Positions 2,584-64,000 of a stretch of DNA of 64,000 bases are shown here, piece after piece. The stretch covers positions 62,001 to 126,000 of the forward strand of contig QPGO01000175.1 of NCBI GenBank assembly GCA_008632985.1, given 5' to 3'. The notes below the pieces were generated by a model, which saw only the letters and a list, made by a program, of their open reading frames with translations, had not been told where the DNA came from and did no database searches. Every line of letters starts with the position of its first letter. Within the stretch, counting starts at the first letter, position 1. The position numbers and the translations under genes are program-made. Source of the stretch: Psammoneis japonica (Eukaryota).

Positions 2584-2789
2584 GGTAGTGTAGCAGTGTT
2601 ATGCTGTGAAGCAGAGACGCAAAAAGCTTCTGGTGATCATTGTTGGATCGGCGCAACACGCCACGATATCGAAGCACGACGAACGAAAAAGATCTGTCTG
2701 TACGTCAGCATAACGCACACGTACGGTACGATTCCACCGACTTGTTCAAATCCTTTTAGCCTTCGCCATCCACCGTCGCTGTAGGGCCC

Positions 2790-3640
2790 TACACCCACCA
2801 CAGCATCCAAGTCATCCAAGCCATGCCTCCTTCTCTTGAATGGCATCTCCTGGACCTTGTTTTTTCCTCCAACCTCCTGCCATGATCAATCCAGCCCCTC
2901 TTGGCTGCCAGCTGAGGATGCTTCTCCTCCTTGCTGCCGACAAGGCTGCTTCCTTTGCAAAGAGGACCTTTTCCACCCTGCAGCTCAACTTGCCAATGAA
3001 CAAACTCAAAGTGTGCTCTTGTGCTTTTGCTGATGTTCCACCCCAGCTATCACCCACCTTCTCTCTGCTGAGGACATTTGCTGCAACTTCTCATGCTTTC
3101 AAGGCCCATCAAATCTCTTCCACTGGGCCTCACCTTTTGCCAAGAACACCCCCGTTGGTCACTCCCTCTGCTTCCTTTCACCCCCCCCCCCCCCCCCCAA
3201 TCACTGCCCAGCTCATCGCTTGCCTCCCTTGGCAGCATTGGCTGTCAGAACACCTCTGCAACATCTGTCCCATCCTTCTTTGTCTCACGCACTCACTCTG
3301 TCAGCGGGTTGGCCAAGCATGGTGGTGTGTGCCCCAAGCTGGCAACCAACACTTTCTCCTCCCACCCAGGTGCTCTGCTTTACTCACCTCTTGGTTCACC
3401 CCCCACCCCTCCCTCCACCTCTGCTCCACCCTCTCTGCAATGTTGCTCCCTTGTTCCTTTTCCAGCTTGCTGGCACTCCTGCTTTTGCACAAATCTGTTC
3501 CCGCTGCTGCAGCTGACCAAACCCACTTCAAGGTCTGCCCAGCACATCTGTTTCCATCACAACAAGTGTGATGTTCCATCTTTCCTTTATGGCCATCCAA
3601 ATCTTCAGCACGCCCCACTTTCCCATGTTGCTGGCATTGT
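2790..3640 (+). mobile_element. Degenerate fragment of a CRE-like non-LTR retrotransposon (post-RT region)
   Basis: CT-rich and TA/CG-depleted. Translated remnants QLANEQTQSVLLCFC and GSIGCQNTSATSVPSFFVS match LHDKQTQARLL and the GGLG-like segment of the more complete copies at 19-22.4 kb and 43-45.4 kb. Confidence 0.6.
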
Positions 3641-6130
3641 TTCAGTGTCCACGACAATCAGCCAACTGACAAAGCACAAGTTCTTGCAGACACACTCGTT
3701 GTTTCTTTGAGCTCCAGCAATTTTGTTGGAAAAGGTTGAAGCCCACTGCATGGCACCATGCAAGCAAAGAATTCACACAAAAACAATGCTTTGATGCCAG
3801 TTGCAAAGCACATCAACAAAAGCAGGGGGGCAGCCAAGAGGGTTCTTGTTGGCAGCAGCATGGAGCAGTGCCACACCAAATTCCAAACTCTTCAAGTTCT
3901 TGTTGCTCTGTTTGATGCAGCAGCAGTGCAACACCTGTTGCCTGATGCACGCGGCATTGGGCATGAAAATGCACATCCATGAGCAATGTGGAATGTGGAG
4001 AAGATGATGATGGAGCTTGTTTGGTGGCAGATGTTTCTGCATCTGTGCAGCTGCCATTGGATGACCTTGGTGGCAGTTTCTGCATTTTGCGTGGCTGCCA
4101 TAAAGTGCACACAGGAACTGGCAAACAATTTTGAAAGCACCAAATTCCTGCAAAAGTTTTGCACACCAACCCACAGTGCTTTTTTCACAAAACAACATGC
4201 AAAAATGACATTGATTGAGAAATTTGGCAATGGTCATGACTCATCAAACAAAATCTCTGAGAAAGCTTTTTCTTTTGCACTCAACCTCATTGCAACTCAT
4301 TGTCTCACACAATGTCACACTTGTTGTTTTCCAAGCCTGAAGCCATGATTGCCAAGGATGGCTCATCCTTCTTCTCTGCAACAGATGGCTTGCTTTTGTT
4401 TGTCACTCCACAACTGATTGCACTTGAAGGCACATTGTCTCCAGGTGGCACAGGTGTTGCCAGTCATGTCCAGAGGCCCGTGACACACCAAACTGAAAGT
4501 GGTCTGATGGAGAGTCACACAATGTCATGCCCAAACCGGTTTCTGGTTCCAGTGGATGTCACAATTGCTCAACGCCAATCTAGAGCTGCTTCTGATGTTG
4601 GCATCACAATTGAGTTCTTGTCAATTGCACCAACCCATTTCAAGGTGGTTGACACTCAAGTGGTGGAAAGCCCTCACTTGTGTCCCAACCACATTCACCT
4701 GAAGCTGCAATCGTCTCCTTGTTTTCTTGCTCCAAGCCAACTTGCACTTTAGCACCAAGCTGTCACAGAACACTCTGGGGCTGGCCAGAGCAGCAGAAAC
4801 CTGGTCCACTTCACTGCCCTTTGCAACACATGCATCATCCCAGCACCAGCTCATGCCTCATGTGCCACCATGATGGAAAAAGAAGCAGTGCACAAACCAG
4901 CTGTGATGGGACTTGAAGCCACCTTGTTTCTGACTCACACCTGCTGGCAGCGACAAAAGCAAAGCTGGCCATGCAGCACATCACATGGTTGAACGCCTCT
5001 TGGTCAATGTTCAAAAGAGAACAGCCCTGGTGCTGCCAGAATGATTGCAGCTGTGCACTGCAAAAGTGAAAGCAGCAAGTCTTCAACAAGGCACACTTGC
5101 GCATGCTGACTTGGCAAAGGTGACTGCCTTGTGACAGGCTTTGTGCAGCAATCTGATGCTCATGGTCCTGCAAGAAGAACTTGCATGTTGTCACAGAACC
5201 AACAAAACTGCCCAAGAAACCCTCATGCAATGAAAAAGTTGCTGTTCCCTGGCAGACGCCTTGCATTTGTTGTTCAGCTGTGCAGCATCTGAGCTCTTGT
5301 GGCTTTTGAATTGGGGCAGCAAGTCTCATGGTGGCTTTCCCTGGTGCACATTGGGCAGTGCAACAGTTGGCATGAGGTGTTTGTCGATGGCTTTGAGGAG
5401 CCCAAAACTTAGATGAAAACACACTGCAAGCCACTGGACTGATGCAGTGTGGCTGGTGTGCAAAGGACAACAGCAAAGTTGGAGAAAGCTGCACAAGGAC
5501 ACAACCTTGCACAGAGTTTGAGCTCCTTTTTCCCACTTGCAGTGCAAGAGGATGCAAAAGCAGGTCAGAAATTGATGATGCACTTGGGTGAGACTCAATC
5601 AATCTTTGTTCAAACTGTCCTCAAATGGACACGGCAATGTAATGCCTCACCTCTGTGGAGCACCATCTTGTTGGCATCTCCTCTCTATTTTGCAGCAACT
5701 TGTTCTTGGGTGCTGACCTTCAAAACCTTGAATGCCCCCCTCATTTTGAGCAATGTGGATGCCCAGCAGCTAAAAGCTTGCACCTTGCTGACTGCCCTTG
5801 CACTTGGTTGATGTGGCACAGATTGCTTTTGCATTAAGAAGTTGCAGATTTTGAAAATCCAGAAAATCCTCAGACACCATCATGTGGGAAGCTGCTTTTG
5901 CACTTTGACCACAACATTGACAACCATGAGGTCAATGTTCCACAAGGTGACACTTCTCCTTCATTGCCACTGAAACTGCAGCAGCAAACAGGTTCAAACC
6001 AAAAAAGGCCCCAGACAAGGTCGTCTCATCATCCCGTTTGAGCAGCAGGCCAAGACACTGTGTTGGGTTTTCAATGCGTTCAAAGCTGCTTCCTTGCAAA
6101 TGACGCAAGATGTGAAGCTCTCAATCAGAC
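3640..6130. mobile_element. Unidentified degenerate repeat/TE DNA (TA- and CG-depleted island 1, distal part)
   Basis: Only ~8 TA seen by eye in 2.5 kb. ORFs are short, Cys/His-rich and Tyr-poor. No recognisable family motif. Confidence 0.45.
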
Positions 6131-6444
6131 TTTAACTTGCTCAACCCCCAAGACCCAAAACGGCAACGCACAAGCCGTGGCTACATACAGTCGCTTAAAA
6201 AAAAAGATCTACTTTTAGAGCCGGCGCCGGCTAACCCGCACTTCCAGCACACTACAGAGTGCAGCAGAAGTGCCACCAGCAGGAAGGCCTTCAAAAGACA
6301 TATGGCACCAACAAAGCATGGCATTCGTTTCGGTCCATATGCAACTCGTACTCCGATTGACTCGGCTATACCCTTCAGAAAGTGGCCAAGACACAGTGCC
6401 AGACTCAATGCAAGACACTGAAAATAGCTTTTAAACAGACTTTC

Positions 6445-7588: not shown

Positions 7589-8154
7589 AGGGGCCTTCCA
7601 ATGGCACTGGAGTCGTCTCAAGGATCAAGTCTGTCGTATTACGTCTTACACATCACGCATCATCCTTAGCGAGGAGTCGGTAAGGCAGTCATCTGACGCG
7701 AGACGACGACTCATTGCGGCTCACATGGCTGATGGGCTGATGGGAGCGGCGAACGGCGGCGGCGGCCCGTGGACAAAGTGCAATTTATTCAGATCTTGAG
7801 AACTGAGCATAAATTCTATTAATTTTGAAATGACCGGAACTCCCTCCGAGAGCGTCCATACGTCGTACGTCATCATTACTGTACGGTAAGCAATAGTGTT
7901 ATTCTCGCGACGCGACCATCGCATGCCATGGCATACAGTATTCATACCTTGCTTTTGAGCTTAGCAACGCCGCCACCAACGCATCACAACAGTACAACAG
8001 TGGCAGAGAGCGTCACAGCGACTAAGACGGCACGCTCATCCAAGATTCGTGTGTTCTTGCACTGTTGTATGTTGTATGATGTGAATAGAAGCAGGGCTGA
8101 TTACGTTTTCGTCTCGAACTAATCGGATCTCGGATTAGGATGGCATGCCTATCA

Positions 8155-10969: not shown

Positions 10970-11564
10970 GGCCTCAATCAATCGTCAGCAATAATGGCCG
11001 GAGCGAATGGCTGGAGTGTCGTCGTCGATGATATTTCAAAGGGCCACGTCTTGAGAAGAGAGGATGTTATCGTTACGTGGAAATGGTAGTGGAGAAAGCT
11101 TGGACGAATCGAGTTACAACTCATGGTGGATCGTCTTTTGCGGAAGGTTTTTGTTTTGCGTTTCGTCCGTTTTGTGGCGCGCACAACACGGTACTGTATG
11201 TAGACTTTCCGGTGATGCGAAAATGTCTGATTCGAAACAAAGATTTATATGTAAATAAACTTTTAATATTTACCTGGATGTACTGTAGGTTATTATTTTT
11301 CAGTACAGATATTTGTATGCTGAGAAAAGCAAAAGTGCCATCCCGCCCAGATCTTTTTACCGCCCGGATTCCACACTGTACTGTAGCTAAAGTATATACC
11401 GGTATTCTCTACATTGATTTAAAACAAGGAAATAAACGCTCTGTTATAGCAGTTTAGTGACGGTGCAAAAATGGCATTCTCAGTGTGCTTGCTGCGGGGG
11501 AGCGTCCTCAGCGATGACACGTTGGAATAGCCCTCTACTGATGACACGTTTCGGGCGACGGAAT

Positions 11565-18903: not shown

Positions 18904-18999
18904 GATGAAATGAGACTTATGGAATCATTAATGCAAAGCCGGTGCACCAGCGGCATCAACAGAAAATGAGAAATGCGCAGCGCCCAAAATTTGAACTCC

Positions 19000-21900
19000 C
19001 TCGCGATGATGACGTCGGCATCGCTCTGTCCTTTTTTCACATCATGCACCCTGCTTCTCATTTTGCTAATTGCTGGCCCTCCGGCACCTTCCCTGATTGT
19101 CTTGACCCTTCTTCCTTGCCAACCCCCATTGTTGCCAAACCCTGGACTCAGCACTGTGCACCTTTGTCATCCCCGGCAACCTGCTGCAATTCCTCCTTCA
19201 AAGAAAATGCCGGCAGCACCCTTGCTGGTTTCACCCCTTCACTCTGTGGCTCCTCCCGCTGCAAGTGTGAAAATTTTCTTTCTCGCCTTCACACCTTTCT
19301 TGTTGGGAAAATCTCTGGCATCTGGCATCACCTTCAAACCCATCCTTCAGCCTCCTGGGACTGCTCACCCCCACCTGCTGTCTCTCAACCTTGCTGGCAA
19401 CAGGCACACCGTGCCTTGCCCCTCTCCACGTGCTCTGCATCTCTTCATCATCTGATGCCATGTGGGGTGCCCTTCTCTTTGCACTGTCAACCCTCTTTCT
19501 GCTCCTCCTAAATCCTTCCAACTCTTTGAGGCTCTGTTGCTTGTTGCTGCTGTTCTGCCAACCCATGCCAAGTCTGGCCTTCCCCCATTCTTGCCCCCCC
19601 CCCCCCCCTGCTGCCTCTCCCCTCTCCCACCTTCACCCCACGGCTGCGCCAACCCAACTTTTGTGATGAAGCCTTCTCTGCTTCAGACAGCTCTGTTGCT
19701 CACCCTCCACACCCTTTTTTGCCTGGGCCTGTTGCTGTTCTTCTCAAGGAGGAGAATGTGCTGATGAAGACAGCCCCTGTGCTCAGCCTGCTCCTCCGCC
19801 AATCTGACCTCGGCTCTCCCAGCAGCTGCCGTCATGCCTGGCTGAGTGCCTTCCCAAAGTTCTCAAGCTGAGACCTCCTCAATTTCATCCTCCCATCATC
19901 TCTTCAGCTTCCTGTGTCACCAGCTCCTTGTCTTGCTGAAATGATGACCCTTCCCATCTCTCACTCTCCTGCTGATGCCACAGGTGTCTTTGCTGGTTCT
20001 GCCAATCTCTGCCTGCCTTCTTTTTGGTCTCTTGTCCTCTTGCTTGTTTTCAGTGGCTCTGCAACCCTGCCATCCATCCTCTCCTGGCCTTTGACTGCTT
20101 TTTGTCACTCATCACTCTGTTGTGCGCAAGGAACCTGCTGAGACCTTGACAAGCTCCATCCTGTTGGCACTGGCATGGCCCTCAAGCTGATTGCTGCTGG
20201 TGCTCTGTTGTCATGGCCCTCCTTTTCAGCTCTGAGCTCACCAAGTGTCTTCTCCCTGATGTGGACAACTTGGCACTGGTGGAATCAAGCTGAGATTCAG
20301 TGGCACCTCTGCTTGGCCTCTCCTGCACAGGCTCTCCCCTTTTTCTGACCTTGTCAACATGTTTGTCAGAGCATTGCACAATGCTTGCCATCATCTTCTT
20401 GCCTCCATTGCTGCCTTCTGCTTGCTCCCTCCATTCATTGACATGGTCATTCACCTGAACTTCAACAAATGCTGGTGCTGCAGCCCTGGCTCCTCTTGGA
20501 GCATTCCTTCACCCAGTGTGAAGGATGCCCAAGGCTGTCCCCTTGGTCCCATCCTCCTTCACTCCATGAATTGCAAACTTCTCCATCACCTCCCACCCCA
20601 CTCTCCTGCCTCCATTGGCCCCTGCATCAATGACACACATTCATCTGTCCTCTGGTTCCTCTGTCCTCTGGTTCCTCTGGCACTTTGAAGCTCTTGGTGC
20701 TGTCCCATGGTGCACCAAGCTCAATCTCCACAAAACTCAGCTCCCACCCTGCAACCCTGCCAAGCTTGCTGCTTCCAACGCACCACCTTCCTTGGCCAGT
20801 CTGATGGCTCTTGCAAGCCTTTGCCACTCTTTCCTCTCTGACATGTCCTCCACTCTCTCCTCCAAAGTTGAGAAGCTCCCCACCTGCCTTCATGACAAAC
20901 AAACTCAAGCCCGCCTTTTGGACATTGTTCCATCTCTTCTTCTGGTGCCCACCTCCTCCTTGTTGCTCTCTGACTTTTGACTTTTGCCACAACTTTGATC
21001 TCAGCAACCCTCCCAACCCCCTTTCATTGGACCTCCTGTTTTCAAGATGCCCTCCTTGTCATCATCCATTGCTCCCTTCCCCTTGTCACCTGCTGTGCAT
21101 TCCCTTGCCATTGCTTTTTTCCCACAAGCCTCCCTTGGTGGCTTGGCTCTTTGACCCTCCTGCCATTTCCATCTCTTCCTTCCTGCTTGTGGCCCTTCTT
21201 CTGTTTCACCATCTCTGCTGCCCACAAAGCTCAGCCATCACCTGGCAATTCCATTGCTCACCCCTGGTGCCTCAAGGTCTCCCTTTCCTCTTGGAACACT
21301 CCCCACTCACATCTCTGCCTTTGTGGCAACTTTTGCTGCTTTGCCTGCACCCTGGACCCTGACTCTGCATCCTCCACCACTTCCCTGTCCTCGCTGCCTC
21401 TGGTCTGGGATCCAGCCTGCACCCACACCATCTCTGTTGTGCTCATCACAGGTGCATTGCTGCTTCCACCCTTGCTGGTGCTCCCCCTCTGATGTCCAAT
21501 CTTCTTTTTCCTCCCATCTGCTGCACCACCCTTCCTTCTGCTTTGTTCACTCTTGCTTCCTGCCCCTGTGGTTGTGCCATCCTGGATGCCTGCAGGGATC
21601 ACTTCTTCTTGCAGAAATGTTGCAGCCACATGCCCAAGCTCTGTCCAGCAGCCTTTGCAACACCATCTTTGTCATTTCTCAAATCTTGGGGCCTCTTGTT
21701 GCCAAGCTGTGTCACTCACCAGCTGATGTCCATCTCAAGCTCCATGTGAATCGTTTGTCCTCTCCCATCCCCTCCTTTGCTCAGCTGATGTCAGCATTTC
21801 CATTCATCCTTCTGCCTCTCTCTTTGCCTCTTCTTGTTGCTGTCACACTGCTGGGCTGTTGACAGGTCACTGCACCAGCCAAAGCTCCTTCTTGCCTGCC

Positions 21901-22435
21901 TCCCAGTCTGCCTGCCCCCTCCACTCCTGCACTGACTGAGGCACACACTGCTTGAGCTTGAGATTGAAGTTTTCTCCTTTTGCTGGTGGTTCTCTTGCCA
22001 TTGTGAACCCCTCAACAATGACAGGATCTTCTTCTTTTCTTTTGCTGTTGATTGCTTGGGTGGTCTTGGCTTCTTCTTTCACCACTTTTTCTTTGGTTCC
22101 TTGGCTCCTGCTGCTTGCTCTCAACCCAAGCCTCCCTGGCACCATCTCTCCACCCTCCACAACTTCAGTGCCTCCTGCTTTGCTTTCCTCCATGCCCTCA
22201 CAGTTTTCCTGTGCCTGTGCCCCTTCTTCCTTCTGCTGACTTAGCCTGATGCTGGAACCAACTTGCCAGCAAACACTTCAGCAGCATGCGCCATGCAATC
22301 CTCTTCTCCTTCTCAACAGGCTGCCCAAACATTGAGCTGCAACATTTCACATCTCATCCTCTCTCTGCTCATGCCTTTTGGCTCTTTTCTGCCCTTTGCA
22401 CAGACTCCTCCCCCACTCCATCTGCCAAATGCCAC
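19000..22435 (+). mobile_element. Degenerate CRE-like (RLE-type) non-LTR retrotransposon, copy 1
   Basis: Ordered remnants: KLHPVGTG (RPIG, ~20150), DLVNMF (~20347), QGCPLGP (20530-20550), CIND for YIDD (20623-20634), KLNLHKT, Zn knuckle CPCGCAILDACRDHFF (~21560), HPLLCSADV for RPADV (~21765), and an FAVD..GGLG RLE end (~22040). Confidence 0.85.
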
Positions 22436-22440
22436 TGTGT

Positions 22441-23240
22441 AACCTGGAAACCAGCACTTCAAAGTTCTGCCACATGTGCCCGCTTCTTGCCAACACCTGT
22501 GCGGCAAGACAACAACTCTGTCTCTGTGCACAGCAAGAAGGCAAGAGCAGGGTGAGTGGAGTGAGCTTAAAAAACAGCATGACATGCAATTGCAAGAGGC
22601 AAGAGCACACCACATGCCTTGCTCTGCAATGACAAAGCTGGCAGCAGCAAGCAGAGCACCCATGGCCACTGCAACGAGTGCCAAGGTCAAAAGAGAAACA
22701 CGGCCAACATTTGGTCCACTTTGCCGCCGTCTGAGTTGATTGTCAGAGCACTTGCAAGCAAATCAAGAACAGAGCTGAGGTCAAAATCAGAGTGCTGCTC
22801 CATGGCGCAGCAAGAGTCACAAAAAATCAAAGCACAAGATTTTGCTGCTGCAGAGCAATTGACAAGAGGCCGTCTCCCCTTGTTCCAACATTTTTGAGAG
22901 ACTGAGTGCCATGTCTGCCCAGCCCCTGCAGGCAGCCTTGCATTGCTGCTGTGCTTTTTAAAATGTCCTCCTCGGTGACTCCAGCCCCAAACCACAGTCA
23001 GTGCATTGTCCCATGCTTTGAAAATCCCAGACTGTTGCACAACCTGGAAACCAGTGTGTCAAAGTTCCATCACACTCTCATCCGCTTCTTGTCCACACAG
23101 TCATGGTGAGGAAATGACAATTCTGTCTCTGTGTGTGGGAAGGCAAGAGCGAGGTGAGTGGATGAAGTGCAAAAAGAAAAAAGCGCAACATGGTGCACGA
23201 TCATGACGGAACACACACACCTCACTCTGCAACAAAGCCG
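22441..23240 (+). repeat. Diverged ~200-bp direct repeat with 600-bp period (22441-22640 and 23041-23240)
   Basis: Both start AACCTGGAAACCAG...TCAAAGTTC...CCGCTTCTTG and share GAAGGCAAGAGC..GGTGAGTGGA. Confidence 0.75.
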
Positions 23241-24899
23241 AACGTGCGGAAATGTGAAGTGATCAGTCACTTTGCTGGCATATATCGTGGGAAAGAATGC
23301 CGACAGATGCGACGTTGGCACGCCGACACCAATGACTTTTGGTGGAAGGCACACTCGCTGCATGCAGTGGGTGTTTAGCCTTCATCCAAATGCAAAAAGT
23401 CCTTTTTGTGCATTGCATTCAGCCAATTCGATGAAATGGTGCCAAAATGACGCACGACAAACAAAGGCACGTATGTTATGGCACGCAATAGCCACGGAAC
23501 GCCTCGTATCTCGTTGCGCTAAATCATTCTATCTAAGTTAAGGTACACTTCTAAAAAATGGACATGTTTCTCTCACTCTACTAGAGAGTATTTTAAACTA
23601 TGCGAGGGGATAGCTAGGCCCGACTGTAGAGTTGATTGCTGCATACCGCGTTTACCACCCACCCACCCGTCAACATCATTGCTTGAATGATTTTTTGGAT
23701 GCTTGTTTTGATTCATGATCTTTTTTACCAAGATAGATCGAGAGTTTTTTCTTTGTTCGGCAGGTGTCAGTACGAATTCACGAGCCGGCAGAAACACCAC
23801 AACAAAAACAATAGCACGACTCTCTCCTTTTTATTGGCAGGATCCAGTGCGCATAAGCGAGCCGGACACATACCAAACAAGTCAAGAGTGCTAACACAAA
23901 TCCAATGTGAATCCATACGTCGTATAATGAGTCAAAAACATCTACAGAAAAAGAGTGTCGTCAGATAGATGATCATTCGCAACCCTTGATCGTGGTGTCA
24001 GTCTCGCATCTGCTTGACTCATTCGCAGATGAGCCACTTACCATCAATAGACAATACAGGCACGCAAGAAATTGTCAATGTTATTGTTGGTATGATTTTT
24101 GGGGAGCTTCTTTTGATTCAAAAGGGACTGTAGGGCACACCGCAGCGCCATTATGGTACGATGAAGAAATCCGATTGCAGCAGAATGGGGCAGATGTAGT
24201 CAGGAAACTATCAGCTATCATTTGTCCTTGGGGTGCTACCTGGCTCAGAAACCTCTGTATATGAGTGATAAAGACGACCATACCAAAGAAAATGAGTGAC
24301 ATAATACATAATGAAACAAAAGCGCAATACTGTACGATTCGATCGCGACAGACAGAGAGAAAATGAGTATCGAATCGTGGTGCAATTACAAAATCCATGT
24401 TTTCATCTTACAATTGGCTGATTACCTTCAAACAAGCAACATAAGTTGATTCTATATGATAGTAAAGACTAGTAAATAGCGTTGATATTGTTGAAAGGAT
24501 TGGCAACAGTCTATTAAACGCCGCTCCGATTCTCATGGTGGGTGTTGTTTGAGGAAATTTGTGCAGACGTGACTGAATGAGTCCCGTCTGACTTCGCGTG
24601 ATGGCCTTGGGGTTTTCATGCGGCTCAGTACCTTTTTCGCGCGAATTTTCGCGTGATTTTACACTCCCCATCGTTCGTGAATCACTTGGTACACATTGGC
24701 ACGCCTTGGCACGCTTGTCCACGAACCACTAAGTACTAAAATACACCCTGGCTACGCAGTGTCCCGTTTGTCCACAGGTGTCCAAAAAAATTCAAAGCAA
24801 AACGATGGAGAGTATAGCTCGAGGACCGAACCGGACCTCGCCTACTAGTAGGGCCCTACCTACCGGCGTACGGTACCGTACCGTACAAGTACCTACCCG

Positions 24900-43159: not shown

Positions 43160-45410
43160 AGGGCGCTTTGTAGAGGGATGAAGGAAAGTGTCCTTGCAAA
43201 GGGTAGAGAGGAAGCAAAGAGCATGAGAGGAGAGGTGGCGTGCAATGTTGGAACTGAGAGTCTGAGTCACCCACTGAGAAGGGGAGGAGGAGTGGTGCGT
43301 GCTGCACCAAAGCGATTGCTGGCAAGTTTGATCAAGGCAAAGTCAACAGAGGGAAGCTGAGAGGGGGGAGAAGCAAGAAGTGAGCCCATGGAGCAAGGCA
43401 GAATAGGAAGCATCAGAGTCTTGCAAGGTGGGTGGCAATGGCCAAGGAGGCTTGGGCTGAGAGCAAGAAGCAGCAGAAAGCAAAGAGCCAAAGAACAAGT
43501 GGCAAAAGAAAAAGCCGAGACCACCAAAGTGATCATCAACAGCAAATGGGAGAGGGAAGATCCTGTCATTGATGAGGAGATTCAACACCAAGAAAGCCAT
43601 CAGCAGAGGAGGCAGAGGTGCCAAGAAACTTTGATCTTGGCTCAAATGGTGTGCCTCAGTCAACGCTGGAACCGAAATGGCCGGCAGACCAGGATGAGGG
43701 TGTGAGAAGAACAAGGAGGTTTGGGTGAGTTGGCATCAACAGTTGTGTGGTGCAGCAGTCATGGTGGCAGCAGGAGCATGTGGAGAGGGACGTGGGAGGA
43801 GGGGCAGAGATGCCAACATCAGCAAGGTGGAGAAGAAGAGGATGGGAGGTCAGAAGGGTTGCAGGTTCAAGGTGTGAACATTGTTGGGAAAACGACACAC
43901 AGCTGACCACCAGGGGCCCCAGGGTCTGTGAAATGATGAAGGTGGTGCCTTGCAGAGGCCGCTGGAGAGCTTGAGCTTGCAACTGCATTGGAATGAGAAG
44001 GTGTGATTAGCGACCACCACAGGCATCAAGGGTGGTGCATCCACGGTCCACAGGGCAGGGAGAGCAAGCCAACATGACATGGATGATGAAGGATGCAGAG
44101 GCACAGCTTGTGCTGAGCAGCAGTGGGCTGGTGCAGGTGCCAGAGGCAAGGCAAGAGGGCTGAAAAAGCACAAGAAAAGGAGTGAAGGGGGTGGCTTGCA
44201 TGAGGGAAAGAAGGGAAGACAGAGAGACTGGAGTGTCAGATGGAGAGTCAGCAGAGGCAGGTGCGGTGGTGTGCTGTTCATCACCATGGCAGAGATGGCA
44301 GGCTAGACCAGCAGGAAGAGCTGATGACGTGACAAGAGCATCCAAGGAGGGAGAGAGTTGGATTGAAGGGTGGGGGCACAGCAATGGAAGAGGGCCCACA
44401 AGTGGAGATTGGAGCAAGGGTCACTCCAAGAGGAGAGAGAGAGAGAGCTTGAAGCAGTGGGAGAGGCTGGACATGTTGACAGAGTCAACAGGCTTCATTG
44501 GCTGAGCTCCACATGAGTGGCAAAGGGAGGCAGGCAGAAAGGCAATGGCAAGGGAGCAGGGGAGGTCAGCATGGCTGGTGGGAGGATGCAGAACACAGCA
44601 GAAAAAGTGGCGGGTGATGGCAAGATGGGCTTCTTGGAAGGGAGGAGATGTCCAGCACTGGGAGGGCTCCTGCTGAGGGTTGTGAGGATCAGAGTTGTGG
44701 TGGAAGTCAACACAATGAGGTGAGCTGAGAGCAGGGAACAAAGAGCAGCACTTGACAAGCTGAGCCAGTGTTTGTTTGTTGTGAGGACAAGCAAGGAGCC
44801 TCTCCACCTCAGAAGAGAGGGTGGAGGATGTGGCAGAAAGCAGGGCATTGGCAAGGGCTTGAGTGCCCCAGCAGAGGCTGGCCAAGAAAGTGGACACTGG
44901 AAGCAAGCTTGGGGCCACAGGACAGGTCATTGACAGGGTTGAGATGTGAAAAGGCAGTGCAAAGGGGGGCTGCTTGGGAAGGGGTTGGGGAGCAAGAATG
45001 GGGCTGGCACCACTGATCAAGACAAGGAGCTCTGGGTTTTGGGAAGGTTGAGCTTGGTGCCGCAGGGGGGGAGCACAAGAGCTCAAAAACACTGAGCAAA
45101 CCAAGGCACAGAAGAGCAAATGAGGAGGAGGCATGTGCAACATCAATGTGAGAGCCAACAGAAGATCAGGAGAGTGAGGTGGGAGACATGGAAGGAGCTC
45201 TTGTGGCTTGCAAAGTGGCTGGAGGCCAGGTGGCAGAGCCAGACCACAGGTGAACAAGATGTGGGTGGGGCGGAGAGGGCACCCTTGAGCAAGCCCTCCA
45301 TGCATGCTGCACAAAGGAGCTCCAAGATGAGTTGGAGTGGCAACGCCAGCACTCATTGGAGTTTTGACAAGTGGCATAAAGAAAGGAAGAGCAGGGTGGA
45401 AGGCAGGCTT
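43160..45410 (-). mobile_element. Degenerate CRE-like non-LTR retrotransposon, copy 2 (5'-truncated, inverted relative to copy 1)
   Basis: GLAQGCPLRP (~45290), HIDV for YIDD (45139-45150), SSTLSSEVERL..HNKQT, Zn-knuckle remnant (~44030), HPLLLHLADVGI (RPADV) and LPFAVDDHFGGLG. Colinear similarity to 20500-22435. Confidence 0.85.
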
Positions 45411-46260
45411 TGAGGTATGAGGTCATGATGGGTGCTGTGCAAAACCAACCACAGCCAATTGACCCACATGCATGACTCAACACAACACCGTGGGAAAAGA
45501 AAGGTGACTGTTTTCAATTCCAAACTCAACATTTTTGCCAAAACAAATCATTTGACACCAGTCAGGTTTTGAAGATTGATTTGAGGTTCTCACCCAGAAA
45601 ACTTTTTTGTGGCAACAAGCTCCATGAGACAAGAGAAAAGATTGAGATGCCAATGACTCCTGCCTTTGAGTGTGTGTTTGGGCATGTTTTGCTCTGCCAC
45701 TGTGCTCTTTACACCTCATTCCATCTGACTTGTTGTGTTCTGTTTTTCCCATTGAATTGGCAGAATGCTGGGGGGGGGGCTGCTGAACTCATGCCCCACC
45801 AAAGATGGCAACAGCTTCCAACTCAGTGTTGCCAAGAATGGCTCACATCATTTCTCAGGTTGTCTGCAATGAAACAAGTCATGATCAAGTGTGGTGGTGC
45901 CAAAGACAATCATGCTCTTGGCTGGCAACTTTTGGCTGGCAACTTTTGGCTTCCTGCATGCAGATGAAGGTGCAATTGAACAAGATCCCCACATGAATTG
46001 TGACATCAAGTGATGGCAAAGCATTTGTGAAATTGCACTGCAAAGCAGCATGGCAAGGTGCGCTTCCCACACTCGAGATGGACTTGCCAATGCAGAAGGG
46101 TGGAATGAAGCTTGACAACTGTGGGCCCAACAGTTTTCTGTTTGAAGAGCCACTTGTGATTGAATGTCCATTCCGACAATGCATTGGGATTGGTTGAAAA
46201 TTCTCAATTTCCTGGCTTTTTTTTTTTCACTCTTGCTTTGCTTCCCAGACTGTGCGCCTG
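45410..46260. mobile_element. Unidentified degenerate TA/CG-depleted DNA adjoining CRE copy 2
   Basis: Same dinucleotide signature. No family motif recognised. Confidence 0.4.
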
Positions 46261-46635
46261 CTGTGAATGCCTGTTACAAAATACAAGAAAAATTATTTCG
46301 GTGGCGTAGCATTGTCTAACAGCAGTCGTAGCTTCTAACAGACTTGTGGAAACTGTGTAAAAAGATGTTGCACCGACACTTGTTGAACTAGAGCCTCCGA
46401 AACTTTCAATGCTGCGGAAGCCTATCAGAACTATAGTAGACAACGTTGCACAGGTGATAGTTTGCAGGCTCGGCTATCTGATGTTCAATATTATGATAAC
46501 GCCATATTCAATTCACACCAGCCATTTTCTCCCCGAAACCATTGACATCTTTACTTTTCACGGCTTCTTCACAGTTTTCTGTTTCACTATAATCAATCTC
46601 AGATAAGGTATCAGCATCACTAACGGCATCACACA

Positions 46636-54099: not shown

Positions 54100-56980
54100 A
54101 TTGTCACACCCCTGTGGTAGGGGAGAATGTGGTGATGTCATGGTTGCGTGGCAGTTTTGTGTCTTGTGCATTGTGCGTTTTTACACAAGTGTCCTCACAC
54201 TGATTTGTGCACTTGCACAAACACCAATGGCAACGGGAAAAATCCTGAACCAGGCATCACAAGTGGGTTTTGCCTCTTTCTTGCTTTGCTGCAGAGTCTG
54301 CCGGACAACGTGCTTGAGCTGACTGCACACATTTTCTTGGCTCTCTGCATTTGGGCTTTGTGCTTTGCGGCTGTTTCCTCATTTTGGGTGGAAGGGGGTG
54401 GTGTGCCCAGGGCAGGTTGGGCCCAACCCCAACCAGCATTCTTCTGCCAACAATTGTTGCAACACATCTCCAACATCTCGAGCAAAGAAACAACAATCTT
54501 GCCACGCCTGACCAAATTTTCAAACTGGGTTGGGACACATCTGTTGTGTGCTCTTTGGGTCATGGCTCAGCTGTTTCATTGGATCTCTTGTGGACTCATG
54601 TCATGCTTTGATGACATGCTCTTGGCCACAGCATTCCTCAACACAATGCATTCCTTTCGGACTCACAAACTGCATGATGAATCCTTGTTGTTGGATCCAA
54701 TTTTTTGACAAAAACCAAGCTCAGTGAGAGTGGCGATGATTCTTGTTGCGACATCCTGCTAAGACCACAACGACCCACATGAATGAGTCCGATTTTCTCT
54801 CTTTGCATTTGCAAGGCTTGTCATGATCAGTGCAGCTTTTCATGAAATCACCATGCCAGGTGCAGAGCTGGGTAAAAAGCTCCATGTTGCTCCCATTTCG
54901 AATCAAGAGCATGGTGTTTGTGGAGTTGTTTTGTGTGGCATCTGGCTCCTGATGCTGTGCAGCATTTTGGTTTCTTAAAATTTCATTTGGTGCACAAGGA
55001 TGCTGGCATGAGGGGTGTTCAGTTGCACACACTGGGGTTGGGATGATGTTTGTTCAAGTGCACTGAGAAGAGCAATTGACCATCACCAGAAAAGTGAGTT
55101 GATTGTCGAGTGTGGTGGCTGATGCATGCATCACACAAAGACGATGCAAAATTCCAAGAAGAGAGCTGGAATGTTGTTTGCTGAGAATGACCCATCTTCA
55201 GCCAAAGCCTTTTTGAATGCACTGGACAAAGGTTGCCACCAGATGTTGGAGACAATGAAGCACGGGCAAATGTGCTGTCAACCAGAGGCAGCAGAGATGA
55301 AAAGTTCAAAGATGACAAGGTTTTTTGCATGGATTGTGTGGCTGCCATCCGATCTGGCAATGAGAGAGGCACAAAATTTGCCAAACTGTCTTGGTGCATT
55401 GAAGGAGGGTGCGCCGACCAACTTTGGGATGTCTGACATTGATTTGCTCTGCATTTCATGTGAACTTCAGGTTTGACATGTTTCGACAAACGTCGCCACT
55501 GTGCAGCATTCTGCAGTGGCAACAACCACAAATGGAGTGTCTTGAAAGCAGCTCAACAGCCTCTCAACAGTGCACAGAGAAACAGTGCAGAAATGCACAA
55601 CAGTGAGAGCAGTGTTTGCAAGATGGCAAAACATCTTTGTTGCATGGCAAAGCACGGTCGTAGACTCTGTGACAAATTTGCACCAAAAAATTGAACACCC
55701 CCCCCCTCCCCAAATGAGCCATGAACACCTCCCATTTTTAAGAGGGTGTGGTTGATGGAGAATTTGCACCCGCATCTGTCGCAGCACTCGAGGAGGTTGG
55801 GGGGAGTGCTGCCATGTTGCGGGCGAAGCACACAAAGGAACTCTTTGCCACTCAGCATTGATGGGTGCACTGACAGCCATGCTCCAGCACTGGTGCTGCA
55901 CTTGACAGCTCTCCTGGCCTTGAGGTTGGGTGGAGTCCAGAGGATTGTCTTGAGTTTCTCCTTGTGCATCTTGGCTTTCCTGCTGGCCACTTCTTTTTTC
56001 ACTTTGCATGTGGCATGTCCTTTTGTGGACTGCTGGAGCAAAATCTGAGTGGCCACAAAGCAAGTCTGTCATGTGGGAGCATGCAAGAGCACCACCAGTG
56101 TCACAGTTTTGGGATGCAGGTCCGTTGGATGAGGGGCGCTGGACAGCCCTTTTTGCAAATTTGATTGGGGGGGCAGACAGGGCTGATCTTGGGCAAGGAG
56201 GGGGGCAGCAGAGCAAGGTGACAGGTGTGTGGCTGCAGTGCAGCAGATGTTGAGTGTTGGCACTCTGGTTGGCTGTTGACAAAATCAGAAAGAAGGGCCC
56301 AACAGGCAAGTGCACGCGCGCACCATGCACGCACGCTGCATGAGCCAGTCTGCGTGGAGGGACCTCATGGCTGAACAGTTTAACCAAAACAATTTTTTGC
56401 TTTTTGCACAAGAAAAAAAGACTTTGACCATGGTGAGCAAATCATTTGCGGCGGCGTCAATGTTGACAATCGAGTGGCAATCGCATCGGGAGAGTCTTTT
56501 TAAACCCTGTTGGAAGCATCTGCTGCTGTGGCGATTGCCGCTTGAATTTTTCCTTTAGATGTTTTTTTTTCCCATCCACTGCTTCTCATGCATGTTTTTG
56601 CTGTTGTTGCCTCCATCCCAATCAAAGGTTGCGAATGCCTCTGTGACCGAAGCACACAAAGGTTGCACGCGCATTCATCGAACGATTCAACAGAAGTGGT
56701 GCTGGTGTGTGGATGGAAGGAGTTGCCTCCGGATGTTCGTGCTTGTTGGTCAAGCACCGCCGTGCTTCATGCTTTTGTGTGGCAAGAACATGCCTACGAC
56801 AAGGGTAATTGTTCGGTTGCGACTACGTCAATGTTTTAATTTGAGAGGCAAGCACACACGGAATGTGCATGCAGCCGCAGCGCAGCACCTGCAGTTAGTG
56901 ACAGCACACAGTCAAAAGCGAGACAGATGCAACCACGGTGTCTGGCCATCAGCAGGAACTATAGCCATAGTGGACACGCA
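54100..56980. mobile_element. TA/CG-depleted TE island 4 (composite)
   Basis: Strong TA depletion and Cys/His-rich junk ORFs. Contains the CRE fragment listed next. Confidence 0.6.
55690..56400 (-). mobile_element. Degenerate CRE-like non-LTR retrotransposon fragment of a different subfamily
   Basis: RRAVKCSTSAGAWLSVHPSMLSGKEFLCVLRPQHG...LECCDRCGCKFSINHTL.KMGG corresponds to the CRE GAWL...EF...LRLRYG...CDGCG...HAL.C..GG region. Confidence 0.8.
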
Positions 56981-61139: not shown

Positions 61140-61399
61140 TGCTGTTGCTCCTTTTAAGATCTATTGCGACTTAATGACCGCAGGATTAGACAGCTCGTCG
61201 TTGCAGTGCGATGCCCTTGTTCTCTCGTGGTTGATATAATGCTCTGCCCTACGCTTGTCGGCACGTTTTCGGCAGTCATTGTGTGTCAGGATCAGGGGCG
61301 CACGCATCGCGGCCTCTAGCTACTAGCACCGGTAAAACATACGGTACAGTATTGTTTTGGGCGTAGAAATGTACCGAGAAAAAGGAGGAATCCGGAACC

Positions 61400-64000
61400 T
61401 GCACAGTGCTGCACATGAAATGCACAAGCAAAAAGGAATCTGCACAAACTGCTTTTTTTGATGACGTCAAAAAAGCCAATTTTTGGCGTGTTCATGTCGT
61501 GTGCATCACGCGTGCAGATTCCATTGTTTCCGGATTCCTTTTGCTTGTGCCATCTCTTACACGACAGCAGAGCAGATGCAGTGGCACATTCTTGAAAAGT
61601 TGGGATGCGATGGCATTTCCGTCGTTGTGGATAGTTTTGATTGCAGTGTTGGAAATTTGCAGCCAGTCGTTTGCTTCAGCAGCAACAGCTGCCGCTTTTG
61701 CTGCTGCACCACGTCACAGTGTTGTGAGAATTGAGCCAAAAACAGAGTTTTGCATCCCAGTCGGCGTTCACATGAAACAGACAAGAAAGATTCAAGAAAA
61801 GAAGAATCTGCATCTGACGATCCACCCACTGCTCCACAAAAGACTCTAGATGAATGGTCGAATGCTCCGTTTTTTGACCCAGACGCCGACACACGGACAG
61901 CCCTGCTGTGTTGAAATGGATTGGAAATTTTGTCAAGAACCATTGTGAACCAGCAGAAGCAACTTGCACAGGAATCATCATGGTGATCTTGGCAATGCTT
62001 GTGCAAGAGGCATTGAGAACACAGCTTTGTGGAGAAAACTGCACTCCGTTTCACCGCATTGGGAGCGGTTTGTTGCAGCCGAGAGACCGGCAGAGAATGA
62101 AAAAACGAAATCTGTTTTGCCGCTGCCTCACTGTGGCCCACACCAACACTGACCACAGCAGACCCACATTCCCCAGTGCCCACAAAGGGCAGCAGGGACA
62201 ATTTGAACACTGTCGGACATTGTCAGAAAGACAATGGGGTGCTTGTGGACCGCCGGCATGCACGGCGCACGTCAGTTGAACATGATTTTTAGAATCTCCA
62301 AATCATGCTGCACTCTTCCATCTTCCATCACACTTGCAACTTGTGCCACCAGCGCATTCACTGCAGCACCGCCAGATGTGCAGGATGCTTGACAGGCCTG
62401 CTCAATTCCATGGCTGTGTGCACATGGCAGAGTGGCGCCCCTTTTTGCGTCTTGCCCTGTGGACTTTGGCTCCAACAGCGGGAGCTTCTCAGACACATCA
62501 CAGCTTTTTCTTTTACACAAGGGACAAGCAATGACAACAGGGATGGAAACTTGAATGGGAGCGGTGCCAGATCATCTTGATGAAGTCGAGTTTGCTGCGT
62601 GCTTCTCTGACGGACAGCAAGCAAGCTCATTTGGAAAAGTTTCTGAAGTCTGCCAATCCAAAAACCGTGAAACAGGCAAGTGATCCACTTTTGGATGAGA
62701 CATTGTTCCAGGCAGCCGATGATGACAACAAACAAGAAGCTCTGCCTGCAATTGTCAAAAAGAAACTCCAAACTTGTTTGTGAGATGGCAGAAAAAAAAA
62801 CAGATGTTGTGTTCCCAGAAAGCTTGAGAGTGGTGTGGCGCCAACATGAGGCATGTCCATCAAGCAGAGGCATCACAGCGTTCCTCATTTGTCCCTTGTC
62901 TGTTGCGTGACTTGTTTTTCTTTTGCCCTTGGGAAGGTTCTTGCAGCAATGAATGGCAAAGTTGAGCATTGTGTCTTTCTCCATGCTTCTGTTTGTGGTG
63001 GTCCGGACATCAAAGCCATGCTGGTTTTTGCTGAAGAACTTGGCGTTGGGGTTGGGATTTGCTGGGGTGAGGCCATCAAGACACATTTCATCAACAGCAG
63101 TCTCGTCTTCTGGAGCATTGGTGCGGTTGGAGTCATTGGTCTTCTTCTTGCATTTGGAGGCATGTGCAAGGAATGGCGGCATTGCACCTTCAATTTCTTG
63201 GCGTGGAATGGTGTTGATGCGTGTGGAGGCAGATGGTCACAAGGTGATGAGTGCACTCAACATCCATCCAGAGCAAGGTGGGAACAACAAACAAAGTGGC
63301 ACCCCTTTGCTTGCCATCTGCTCTGGAAGAGACACACACAGTGAGATGATGACTTGTTTTCCCGTCACCCTCAGGAGTCCTCTGAAAAATTTGCAGCTTC
63401 TTCATCACCTCCTTGAAGACCAGCACTTTCTTTTGGCATTTCATTGTGTCCGTTGCAACTTCATCCACATGTTGTGTTTTCAAAAAGCCCCAAGCCTCTC
63501 AACCAACATCAACTTCACCTGCAGCATGGAGATGCTTCACAAAAGACTGCCACTTTGCAAAGTGCGCATCATCCCGAACCTCTTTGATCCCCTGCTCAGT
63601 GCAAATTGGGTCCAAGCTTGAAGTTGAAGCCAGTTTTGCTGGCTTTGGGTGGTGTTGGAGCATGGAGCACACAAAATGATCAGACACAGATGGTTTTTCA
63701 TGCTCGTCAATGAACTCATCAGTCAAGTTGTTCACAATCTCAAGAGTGGTGTCCTTTGACACTGTGCACCCGCCCATCTGACCCAACCAGCAGCAAACTT
63801 CAACAATGTGCTGCTCTTTGTTGTCAGCAAGAAGAGCTGTGTTTCCCTTGTGCAAGACAGTGATTGCCTCCTTTGCCTTCTCATCTTTTGCTCCAAAATG
63901 CTTGCAAATGGCTTCTTTTGCTTTCTCCACTGAAGCATTTTCTTGACAAAGACAACAAAGTCCACTTTGTTCCCAGGCCCAATTCAGGGTGTTGCAAAGG
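61400..64000 (-). mobile_element. Degenerate pogo-like (DDE_1) DNA transposon within TA-depleted island 5; runs off the window end
   Basis: Remnants HNM.DEVATD (first D), HLTVCVSSRADG, TTNRSMEKDTMLNFA.H, LLDGHASCW (62841-62861) and FFFLPSH. A CENPB-HTH-like region lies in ORF 63499-63930. Confidence 0.75.

Follow-up and report, generated by a model that had tools for sequence, protein, structure and literature searches.

Hypermutation of TpA to TpG and CpA has been demonstrated experimentally in integrated NCLDV and virophage DNA of the alga Bigelowiella natans (Mettrop et al., bioRxiv 10.64898/2026.01.13.699255). According to the main text of that report, mutation-accumulation lines gave a direct measure of the rate, which was raised by orders of magnitude in the affected region. 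RT and DDE domains are overrepresented there in long-term clusters depleted of TpA and enriched in CpA and TpG, and an adenine deaminase of the ADAT2-like type was proposed, which is unproven there too (bioRxiv 10.64898/2026.01.13.699255). The diatom islands described here probably extend this very recently described kind of process, which had been reported once before and in an unrelated alga. The statement in an earlier note on this DNA that no description of such a process was known to its author is outdated in view of that preprint's main text; a literature search for a report of TpA hypermutation in diatoms found none.

The 64-kb window, by which we mean the whole stretch of DNA analysed, contains five intergenic islands, together 15.9 kb (15,937 bp), which are nearly TA-free and CG-poor. 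As far as the main text on B. natans allows comparison, both cases share A:T to G:C transitions at TpA giving TpG and CpA, which in diatoms are indicated by the footprint, its mass balance and a second locus, L045. Both are also restricted to particular regions, which are foreign-derived in B. natans, hold a gypsy-type retrotransposon in L045 and consist of repeats without recognisable domain in the window. In contrast, the host there belongs to the Rhizaria and the diatom to the Stramenopiles, and the diatom process is known from footprints, whereas the rate given in the preprint comes from mutation-accumulation lines. The diatom footprint is near saturation, with an observed/expected ratio (O/E) for TA of 0.04, compared to a Rho of 0.45 given in the main text for the NCLDV region of B. 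natans. TpA loss is coupled to CpG loss in the diatom, and the term 'CpG' occurs 0 times in that main text. A rule for the 3′ neighbour (TAY preferred, YTAR resistant) was found here; 'trinucleotide' likewise occurs 0 times in the main text, although figures or supplements may hold such a rule.

Other known systems match in part. Fungal RIP is also a transition hypermutation which stays within sharply delimited repeats or foreign DNA and ruins transposon genes, but it changes C to T mainly at CpA and creates TpA, whereas here TpA is destroyed, CpA and TpG are made and a different base is affected. A test for the RIP signature accordingly gave the opposite result (TA O/E 0.04, TG and CA O/E 1.7). 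Decay by 5mC deamination could account for the CpG to TpG/CpA part (CG O/E 0.12–0.42 per island; 9 of 96 replacements in L045), but the 5mC route cannot touch TpA, the loss of which is more complete and reaches CpG-normal stretches. By analogy, the animal APOBEC3 and ADAR systems may be regarded as similar, being deaminase-driven hypermutation with a neighbour-base preference that serves as defence; however, they edit single-stranded cDNA or RNA strand-specifically (G>A or A>G), and in the diatom it is resident genomic DNA that is changed, on both strands. The 5hmU of dinoflagellates resembles the present case, as far as excerpts of the source go, as a marking of T in transposons within the SAR lineage with an older report of TA/TC preference, but is described there as an epigenetic mark and not shown to be mutagenic (PMC11572971).

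The islands and their parts are as follows.

2791..6132, island 1, between a PSMD13-like gene and the next gene; TA 11 (O/E 0.05), CG 26 (0.13), TG O/E 1.94, CA O/E 1.71.
18930..23280, island 2, the flagged island, holding a 2733-bp TA-free run; TA 6 (0.03), CG 40 (0.15), counted over 19000-23281.
18930..19500, left edge of island 2, adjoining the start of a RING-finger gene; TA already lost, CG still there.
22420-22575 and 23020-23175, plus strand, direct duplication inside island 2; copies of about 150 bp, families D1 and D2.
43205..46274, island 3, a further, inversely oriented copy of the repeat family of island 2; TA 6 (0.04), CG 23 (0.12).
54183..56794, island 4, between a zf-MYND gene and a hybrid histidine kinase gene; TA 8 (0.05), CG 54 (0.35).
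61373..64000, island 5, continuing past the window end; TA 5 (0.03), CG 63 (0.42).

The pooled islands contain 36 TA (O/E 0.04) and 206 CG (0.20) together with 1712 TG (1.73) and 1662 CA (1.67), compared to 1976 TA (0.60) and 2700 CG (0.99) and an O/E of 1.16 for both TG and CA in the 48,063 bp outside. Relative to the rest of the window, TA plus CG is lowered by 8.2 percentage points of dinucleotides and TG plus CA raised by 6.7, so that the gain in TG/CA covers 82% of the TA and CG loss. The longest TA-free run extends from a TA at 19509 to the next at 22242; at the background TA frequency of 4.11% such a run of 2733 bp has a chance of about 10^-50. The earlier note, made by eye, had described this gap (about 19,512-22,240) correctly, together with normal TA in the flanks and enriched TG/CA within, and its remaining TA counts hold as well, with 5 in 61,400-64,000, 4 in 43,420-45,420 and 11 in 3,000-5,900. 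Its four islands are real, but the flagged one is larger than assumed (about 18,930-23,281) and the island at 54,183-56,795 had been missed.

Island borders are sharp for TA, with abrupt boundaries at 2790 and 6133 in island 1, and the genes flanking the islands are normal. Window stretches outside the islands that lack long ORFs showed TA O/E values of 0.62-0.85, i.e. normal, and the signature is thus not a property of non-coding DNA as such. The scarcity of Tyr and the excess of Cys and His in island ORFs, which had been noticed before, is an arithmetic consequence of absent TAY codons, and the disappearance of TAA and TAG stops from converted DNA would account for long pseudo-ORFs.

No transposon or viral Pfam domain was found in 122 island ORFs of at least 70 aa, and no such family in any of the 30 frames obtained by reading through the five islands (X at stops, E≤0.1); island 2 did not yield any Pfam domain in its six frames, nor did one turn up in islands 1, 4 and 5. 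A tblastn search with 152 retroelement polyproteins against the window gave no match in the islands and one match outside them. The previous assignments of islands to a CRE retroelement and a pogo transposon are not supported, as neither an RT/endonuclease nor a DDE or CENP-B-like domain was found in these ORFs and frames. A search for LTRs, TIRs and target-site duplications at the island ends revealed nothing convincing. Matches of island ORFs to snake-toxin, saposin, TTC3 and FSH1 families were all under the curated cut-offs and were dismissed as chance; a Fuz_longin match in the window was weak. No tRNA or Rfam family was found in the 64-kb window, and its tandem repeats are unremarkable. 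The presumed foreign or transposon nature of the islands in the window is argued from repetition (islands 2 and 3; extra contigs of the DNA run X1 over island 1) and from analogy with L045. Over island 1 the summed depth of X1 contigs reaches up to 220 and contig ends are loose, which indicates related pieces elsewhere in the genome.

Islands 2 and 3 belong to the same repeat and have diverged from each other. The reverse complement of island 2 is homologous to island 3 with 68-72% identity, and 1182 confidently aligned columns are 68.2% identical. The minus strand is purine-rich in the former and the plus strand in the latter. Matching of purine/pyrimidine-coded 28-mers gave a single diagonal between the two islands, and the copies differ by transversions and indels as well. 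In the global alignment, TG-versus-CA sites were discordant at 86 and concordant at 214 positions. Among the adjacent double transitions in the confident columns, 34 of 71 were TG<->CA, compared to 14 AG<->GA, 9 AA<->GG and 9 AC<->GT and a rough chance estimate of about 10. This excess points to probable independent conversion after the copies had parted. The trigger of fungal RIP is duplication; here the two islands belong to one family but are now only 68-72% identical. The D1/D2 copies within island 2, spaced by 600-602 bp and 78-79% identical, also differ at TG/CA and CG sites.

The direction of change became apparent from L045, a metagenome contig of a second diatom carrying a partly converted island (TA O/E 0.03-0.3). 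This island encodes RVT_1, RT_RNaseH and an integrase zinc finger, which identify it as a gypsy-type retrotransposon; a representative search with its RT as query gave 34,688 matches, confirming RT homology, and self-BLAST of the locus revealed no LTR pair. At 25 conserved Tyr columns we found Cys 13 times, His 8 times and Trp once, with Tyr kept at 3, while conserved Phe (26/26), Trp (10/10), His (10/10) and Asn (12/12) were kept throughout. The 96 replacements comprise 46 TA>TG/CA, 9 CG>TG/CA, 12 other transitions, 16 transversions and 13 multiple changes, a classification in which the TA explanation was taken if any ancestral codon allows it, so that this class is somewhat inflated, the Tyr columns being unambiguous. 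Conserved positions in the RT and RNase H which the element itself encodes are destroyed by these changes, including a Tyr>His exchange in what we take to be the YxDD motif. Among 120 database relatives of this gypsy family, 78 keep the tyrosines and 22 are Tyr-free, Cys/His-rich products; the L045 island and the Tyr-less relatives come from assemblies of other samples. Of the loci compared, L045 alone shows both the direction, with TA as the ancestral state, and a retrotransposon as the target.

Residual TA in the islands is found preferentially as YTAR (20/36 versus 324/1984 outside, p=1.3e-7), a pattern repeated by L045 (44/78 versus 26/152, p=3e-9). These counts show that the putative conversion prefers TAY and that YTAR is resistant. 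The fate of Tyr in L045 by preceding base (pyrimidine 7 Cys/2 His, purine 6/6) was not significantly different (p=0.37). As a side observation, this trend runs in the direction that the TAY rule predicts. TG and CA counts are about equal within every island and Tyr>Cys as well as Tyr>His occur on one sense strand of L045, indicating that both strands are hit. Several stretches are TA-free but CG-normal, namely 61373-62600, the left part of island 5, an island without any TA beyond 62514; 56300-56795 in island 4, dense in CG yet almost without TA; and 18930-19500, where 18 CG lie between 18940 and 19429 and the only TA are at 19067 and at the border (18929). As read from composition, CpG loss is slower and less sharp than TpA loss, and the two do not cover the same stretches.

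Taken at the level of the phenomenon, it is very probable that a locus-restricted process acting on DNA turned TpA steps to TG/CA in repeated or foreign DNA of the diatom nuclear genome. The islands would best be explained as old, non-coding DNA of this kind in which A:T pairs of TpA became G:C (TA>TG or CA) on both strands, repeatedly and over a long time. A slower CpG>TpG/CpA decay of the methylated-cytosine type would overlay this conversion, presumably by 5mC deamination in the same silenced regions. The earlier note had postulated such a second, TpA-specific process, apart from CpG decay and opposite to RIP, in particular repeats, and this proposal is supported, with direction and transposon targeting contributed by L045. 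The process may represent a genome defence of the kind shown in B. natans by mutation accumulation. As to its chemistry, a DNA deaminase, TadA/ADAT2-like or of another type, could be brought to silenced chromatin and deaminate adenine there (A>I, with I read as G), a tentative proposal to which we give somewhat less than an even chance. A DNA adenine deaminase with TA preference, as suggested in the earlier note, is thus still a candidate. More speculatively, diatoms might possess a DNA editor, guided by chromatin or RNA and active all the time, which changes A:T to G:C at 5′-TAY-3′ in silenced transposons and other foreign DNA and outpaces 5mC decay; it would be homologous to the Bigelowiella system, perhaps mechanistically linked to the TpA-biased thymine modification of dinoflagellates, and part of an ancient SAR-wide 'reverse-RIP' defence. 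This wider picture is doubtful at present; if true, the enzyme would amount to a naturally occurring base editor that acts on double-stranded DNA and turns A:T into G:C.

If the process is the same as in Bigelowiella, TpA-directed hypermutation would be a genome defence in at least two lineages of the SAR supergroup and not one alga's curiosity, and diatoms, one of these lineages, are major primary producers of the ocean. It would further explain why some diatom repeats escape transposon annotation and why gene callers predict long Tyr-free, Cys/His-rich pseudo-proteins. Concrete, testable constraints on the candidate enzyme come from the near-saturated islands, from the L045 element with its partial conversion and from the contrast between TAY and YTAR. 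For base editing, an enzyme that turns A:T into G:C within resident double-stranded DNA and in a defined context would be of interest.

The same targeted hypermutation with an identical TA>CA/TG footprint would result if a TET/JBP-type dioxygenase oxidised the thymine of TpA within silenced repeats, to 5hmU or a further product, and T>C then became fixed through mispairing or defective repair. Since TpA is palindromic, a T>C change in one strand appears as A>G in its complement, and all results are compatible with this route; 5hmU or 5fU would yield T>C. To our knowledge, 5hmU has not been found in diatoms. We detected no gross conversion of TC (O/E 0.96 in islands versus 1.14 outside; CC 0.97 versus 0.86), and a TC preference is thus at most weakly visible. 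According to excerpts of a report on dinoflagellates, TET/JBP homologues make 5hmU that is enriched in transposable elements and silences them, and older work had found thymine replaced preferentially in TA and TC dinucleotides (PMC11572971). We consider thymine oxidation unlikely.

Error-prone repair synthesis by a Pol-eta-like polymerase at silenced repeats, one of the candidates of the earlier note, appears very improbable. Pol eta errs A>G at WA motifs, in line with the A:T>G:C changes observed, but the WA signature should deplete AA too, and AA O/E is 1.28 in the islands versus 1.14 outside. The dependence of residual TA on its 3′ neighbour (TAY versus TAR) is also foreign to the WA motif. 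Hardly any weight can be given to ADAR-like A>I editing of retroelement RNA fixed via reverse transcription and re-insertion, even though ADARs prefer a 5′ U and retroelements have an RNA stage. Such editing predicts A>G on the sense strand alone, at variance with the equality of TG and CA in every island and with the pol frame of L045, in which Tyr became Cys 13 times and His 8 times; moreover, the two resident copies in islands 2 and 3 were apparently converted independently in place, and the signature spans islands that are non-coding and sharply bordered in the genome. A 3′ G is the context favoured by ADARs, contrary to the resistance of TAG and TAA found here. Just as implausible are islands that were born TA- and CG-poor as odd foreign DNA, or selection removing TA and CG to avoid nucleases or TA-targeting transposon insertion. 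Word avoidance by selection is known in phages and viruses, but what takes the place of the losses here is specifically TG/CA, their transition products (82% mass balance), homologous copies have TG versus CA at the same sites, the L045 changes wreck conserved RT and RNase H residues of the element itself, and 78 of 120 relatives retain the tyrosines. A sequencing or base-calling artefact is practically negligible: modified bases can give systematic long-read miscalls, but the islands recur in contigs of an approximately 61x run, independent metagenome assemblies and proteins show the signature too, and flanking genes from the same reads are normal.

The run in question, X1, is a public DNA run, which may be the assembly's own sample, and its contigs were compared with the window at a word depth of about 61 over genes and islands alike. 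They carry the same TA-free sequence, which argues against the base-calling artefact that the earlier note had named as a possible refutation. Contigs of X1 cover 19594-22671 of island 2 and differ from it in 10 letters, among them TG<->CA doubles at 21324/5, 22212/3 and 22433/4. Differences listed between long X1 records and the window amount to 11 letters in 5306 bp of island and 2 in 11,178 bp of genic DNA (Fisher p=1.5e-4; p=0.007 with doubles as single events), a comparison based on these 13 listed letters with 41 further differences outside the count. The island differences include, besides the three TG<->CA doubles, a TG/TA, a CA/CG and a TG/CG change. They may point to recent or continuing activity, although alleles, paralogous contigs or assembly errors could account for a share of the differences. 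Contigs of a further run with RNA-like behaviour, X2, leave most of islands 1 and 2 without cover, from which nothing follows about expression. Normal TA was retained in a stretch at about 6169-7502 that is multi-copy and transcribed.

A dinucleotide scan across the whole 64-kb window revealed five islands with sharp borders, 15,937 bp in all, which are nearly devoid of TpA:

Island 1, 2791-6132
Island 2, about 18930-23280, carrying the TA-free run that had first drawn attention
Island 3, 43205-46274
Island 4, 54183-56794, with an observed/expected ratio (O/E) of 0.05 for TA and 0.35 for CG; its right 500 bp are rich in CG and nearly without TA
Island 5, 61373 to the window end

The pooled islands contain 36 TA (O/E 0.04) and 206 CG (O/E 0.20), compared to 1976 TA (O/E 0.60) and 2700 CG (O/E 0.99) in the remaining 48,063 bp, and the O/E values of TG (1.73) and CA (1.67) exceed the 1.16 found outside. 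The earlier note had given four TA counts, all of which are correct, and a TA-free run in island 2, which is exact: successive TAs lie at 19509 and 22242, and this gap of 2733 bp has a chance of about 10^-50 at the background TA frequency. The island at 54183-56794 was absent from its list. As shares of all dinucleotides, TA and CG together are 8.2 points lower in the islands than in the rest and TG and CA 6.7 points higher; thus, 82% of the lost dinucleotides are recovered as the two transition products. Similar counts of TG and CA within every island indicate that both strands were affected. As TA is normal (O/E 0.62-0.85) in other window stretches without long ORFs, the signature is tied to particular segments and not to non-coding DNA generally. 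Long ORFs in all six frames of the islands are an arithmetical by-product, because TA-free DNA cannot hold TAA or TAG. The islands are the product of a locus-restricted conversion of TpA to TpG or CpA at the DNA level.

This conversion outruns CpG decay. Only five TA occur at 61373-62600, yet CG O/E in 500-bp windows reaches 0.35-0.65; at 56300-56795 and 18930-19500 TA is likewise lost and CG frequent, and islands 4 and 5 show a CG O/E of 0.35-0.42 alongside a TA O/E of 0.03-0.05. TA-poor stretches which retain CG demonstrate that the islands are delimited by the faster loss of TpA. The loss of CpG would then be secondary, as cytosine methylation of silenced repeats would give.

The 36 surviving island TAs, read on both strands, are followed by A in 34 of 72 and by G in 21 of 72 cases, compared to 21% and 22% outside (chi-square p=2e-8). 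YTAR (Y pyrimidine, R purine) accounts for 20 of the 36 and for 324 of 1984 TAs outside (p=1.3e-7). This survivor bias identifies an A:T pair with A followed by a pyrimidine (TAY = RTA) as the favoured target. Pol-eta with its WA motif, suggested in the earlier note, is disfavoured, as AA is not depleted in the islands (O/E 1.28 versus 1.14 outside).

Island 3 is homologous to the reverse complement of island 2 (68-72% identity), and island 1 is partly matched by additional contigs from the public DNA run X1, which have loose ends and raise the summed depth to as much as 220. Three or more of the islands thus consist of repeated DNA. The labels CRE and pogo previously assigned to such islands could not be upheld: no transposon or viral Pfam family was found in 122 ORFs (70 aa or longer) or, at E<=0.1, in all 30 read-through frames across the five islands (stops as X), and tblastn of 152 retroelement polyproteins gave no match within any island. 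Searches for LTRs, TIRs and target-site duplications at the islands found none. Just outside island 1, positions 6169-7502 resemble a multi-copy transcribed gene family: contig depths there sum to 155-193, and variant letters are numerous, in X1 as well as in the RNA-like run X2. TA and CG are normal there, so the signature is not brought on by repetition alone. X2, which bears no RNA label on its record, is transcriptome-like: its contigs omit nine short stretches (73-103 bp) whose ends on the gene strand are GT..AG, which provides intron positions for the genes at 8469-15101.

In the alignment of islands 2 and 3, TG in one copy faces CA in the other at 86 dinucleotides, with TG/TG or CA/CA at 214. 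The 1182 confident columns (68.2% identity) comprise 239 transitions and 111 transversions. Among 71 adjacent double transitions, 34 are TG<->CA, compared to 14 AG<->GA, 9 AA<->GG and 9 AC<->GT; by our own rough arithmetic, about 10 per class are expected for independent transitions. The excess shows that TA or CG stood at those sites when the copies parted and was then converted separately in each. Conversion acts on both strands and after insertion or duplication. With about 10% transversions between the copies, neutral decay would leave TA at roughly 1-2% of dinucleotides by our estimate; the observed 0.23% suggests that the purge was late or is ongoing. Recent activity is also hinted at by the differences listed between long X1 records and the window, 11 letters in 5306 bp of islands versus 2 in 11,178 bp of genes (Fisher p=1.5e-4; p=0.007 with adjacent doubles as single events). 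These numbers are small, with 41 more differences beyond the listing, and alleles, paralogues and assembly errors are not distinguishable in them. The following island differences, drawn partly from shorter X1 contigs, are of the kinds expected:

21324/5, 22212/3 and 22433/4, TG<->CA doubles
21523, window TG, contig TA
22852, CA versus CG
3569, TG versus CG

The X1 contigs cover genes and islands equally (word depth about 61) and match island 2 over 19594-22671 save 10 letters, so the signature is not an artefact of the assembly's consensus or base calling; X1 is possibly the assembly's own sample, and its agreement with the window is not independent biology. Independent support is provided by other samples with the same signature, namely one metagenome contig (L045) and many database proteins. 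Within island 2, about 14 consecutive C (G on the opposite strand) occur at 19580-19610, and the X1 contigs break there, one record stopping at 19590 and the next beginning at 19594. A 16-bp tandem repeat of 2.5 copies at 20640-20679 coincides with a 16-bp deletion in the X1 contig at 20644, a copy-number difference.

The ORFs flanking the islands have ordinary products, both eukaryotic and plastid-related (PSMD13, PSMD3, NOP56/58, EFTUD2, PAP-fibrillin and a hybrid histidine kinase). The NOP56/58 ORF shares 69-81% identity with its best 120 database matches, among which all source-given organism names are diatoms. A 24-sequence tree placed the window and L045 proteins in a clade with all 13 named diatoms (support 99/99), L045 among the raphid pennates (99/97), the window protein outside them. 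Hence, the window host is a diatom, with no close relative among the named ones, and not Bigelowiella.

With 28 aligned NOP56/58 proteins of diatoms as the query, 80 metagenome loci were fetched (328 kb in total, 22 of at least 5 kb). TA O/E fell below 0.15 in 39 of their 2924 500-bp windows, 17 of which belong to L045. This 10.9-kb environmental raphid-pennate contig has normal flanks, with a 2-hydroxyacid dehydrogenase gene and NOP56/58, and an island at about 1750-8250 (TA O/E 0.03-0.3, CG 0.16-0.64, TG+CA 1.4-1.9) with these matches:

RVT_1, E=7e-10
RT_RNaseH, E=1.4e-18
integrase zinc finger, weak match

This domain order is typical of Ty3/gypsy, and the partly converted island holds a degenerate gypsy-type retrotransposon. 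Its residual TAs follow the window's rule, with YTAR at 44 of 78 sites inside and at 26 of 152 flanking ones (p=3e-9). The pol frame (656 aa, three stops as X), aligned with 40 of 52 full-length relatives identified, retains 344 of 440 conserved columns. Three of 25 conserved Tyr columns are kept, 13 are Cys (TGY), eight His (CAY) and one Trp, with Phe (26/26), Trp (10/10), His (10/10) and Asn (12/12) intact; HIDD stands in place of YxDD, which we take to be the RT motif. The 96 replacements comprise 46 single TA>TG/CA, 9 CG>TG/CA, 12 other transitions, 16 transversions and 13 multiple changes, by a classifier which leans to TA at ambiguous codons, the Tyr cases being unambiguous. TpA conversion thus hits a retrotransposon in this diatom relative. 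Direction and target as seen in L045, together with the islands, bear out the core idea which the earlier note had reached independently, a second, TpA-directed process separate from CpG decay.

Among 120 listed database relatives of this pol (P0128-P0247), 22 lack over half the conserved Tyr, nearly always with Cys or His instead and Phe kept, 20 lie in between and 78 retain 80% or more. In P0141, none of 15 Tyr survives (14 have become Cys or His), and all 12 Phe do. Intact members of the family thus still contain TA, and public data abound in converted copies. Public collections contain many 'proteins' called on hypermutated retrotransposon copies. RT or RNase H ORFs that are poor in Tyr and rich in Cys/His could offer an inexpensive handle for finding TpA conversion in metagenomes.

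As TpA is palindromic, A>G and T>C are inseparable from sequence alone. Our preferred, still tentative candidate enzyme is a TadA/ADAT2-type DNA adenine deaminase. The natural tRNA target of TadA/ADAT2 has U before it and, in bacteria, C after it, a closer fit to TAY than the 3' G favoured by ADARs. The main rival to adenine deamination, TET/JBP-type oxidation of thymine at TpA, appears rather unlikely; dinoflagellate enzymes of this type are described to make 5hmU, which is transposon-enriched and transposon-silencing and, per older dinoflagellate work, occurs mainly in TA and TC dinucleotides (PMC11572971).

TpA conversion is probably a genome defence akin to the process in Bigelowiella natans. 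In mutation-accumulation lines of this species, 231 of 302 nuclear mutations were reported in two regions of integrated viral DNA (rate about 6e-7 per site and generation), all but one A>G or T>C and these GC-biased ones all at TpA, as well as 124 TpA-depleted, CpA+TpG-enriched clusters with RT and DDE domains enriched (bioRxiv 10.64898/2026.01.13.699255). The kind of phenomenon is thus already known, albeit very recently, and the earlier note's view that no description of it was known does not hold. A full-text literature search found no diatom report of TpA-targeted hypermutation and returned this 2026 preprint as the sole paper on such hypermutation; in its main text, counted apart from figures and supplements, 'CpG', 'diatom' and 'trinucleotide' each occur 0 times. 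New relative to that description are the diatom lineage, indeed two of them, the near-saturated TpA erasure, the coupling of TpA loss with a yet separable CpG decay, and the resistance of YTAR.

Two other metagenome loci showed related composition. L076 from a non-diatom eukaryote (NOP56 identity 52%) carries a 500-bp patch at 1001-1500 with a TA O/E of 0.04 and TG+CA of 1.85, and L073 (GC 59%) has a TA O/E of 0.1-0.5 and high TG+CA over the greater part of its 13 kb; its CG is normal.
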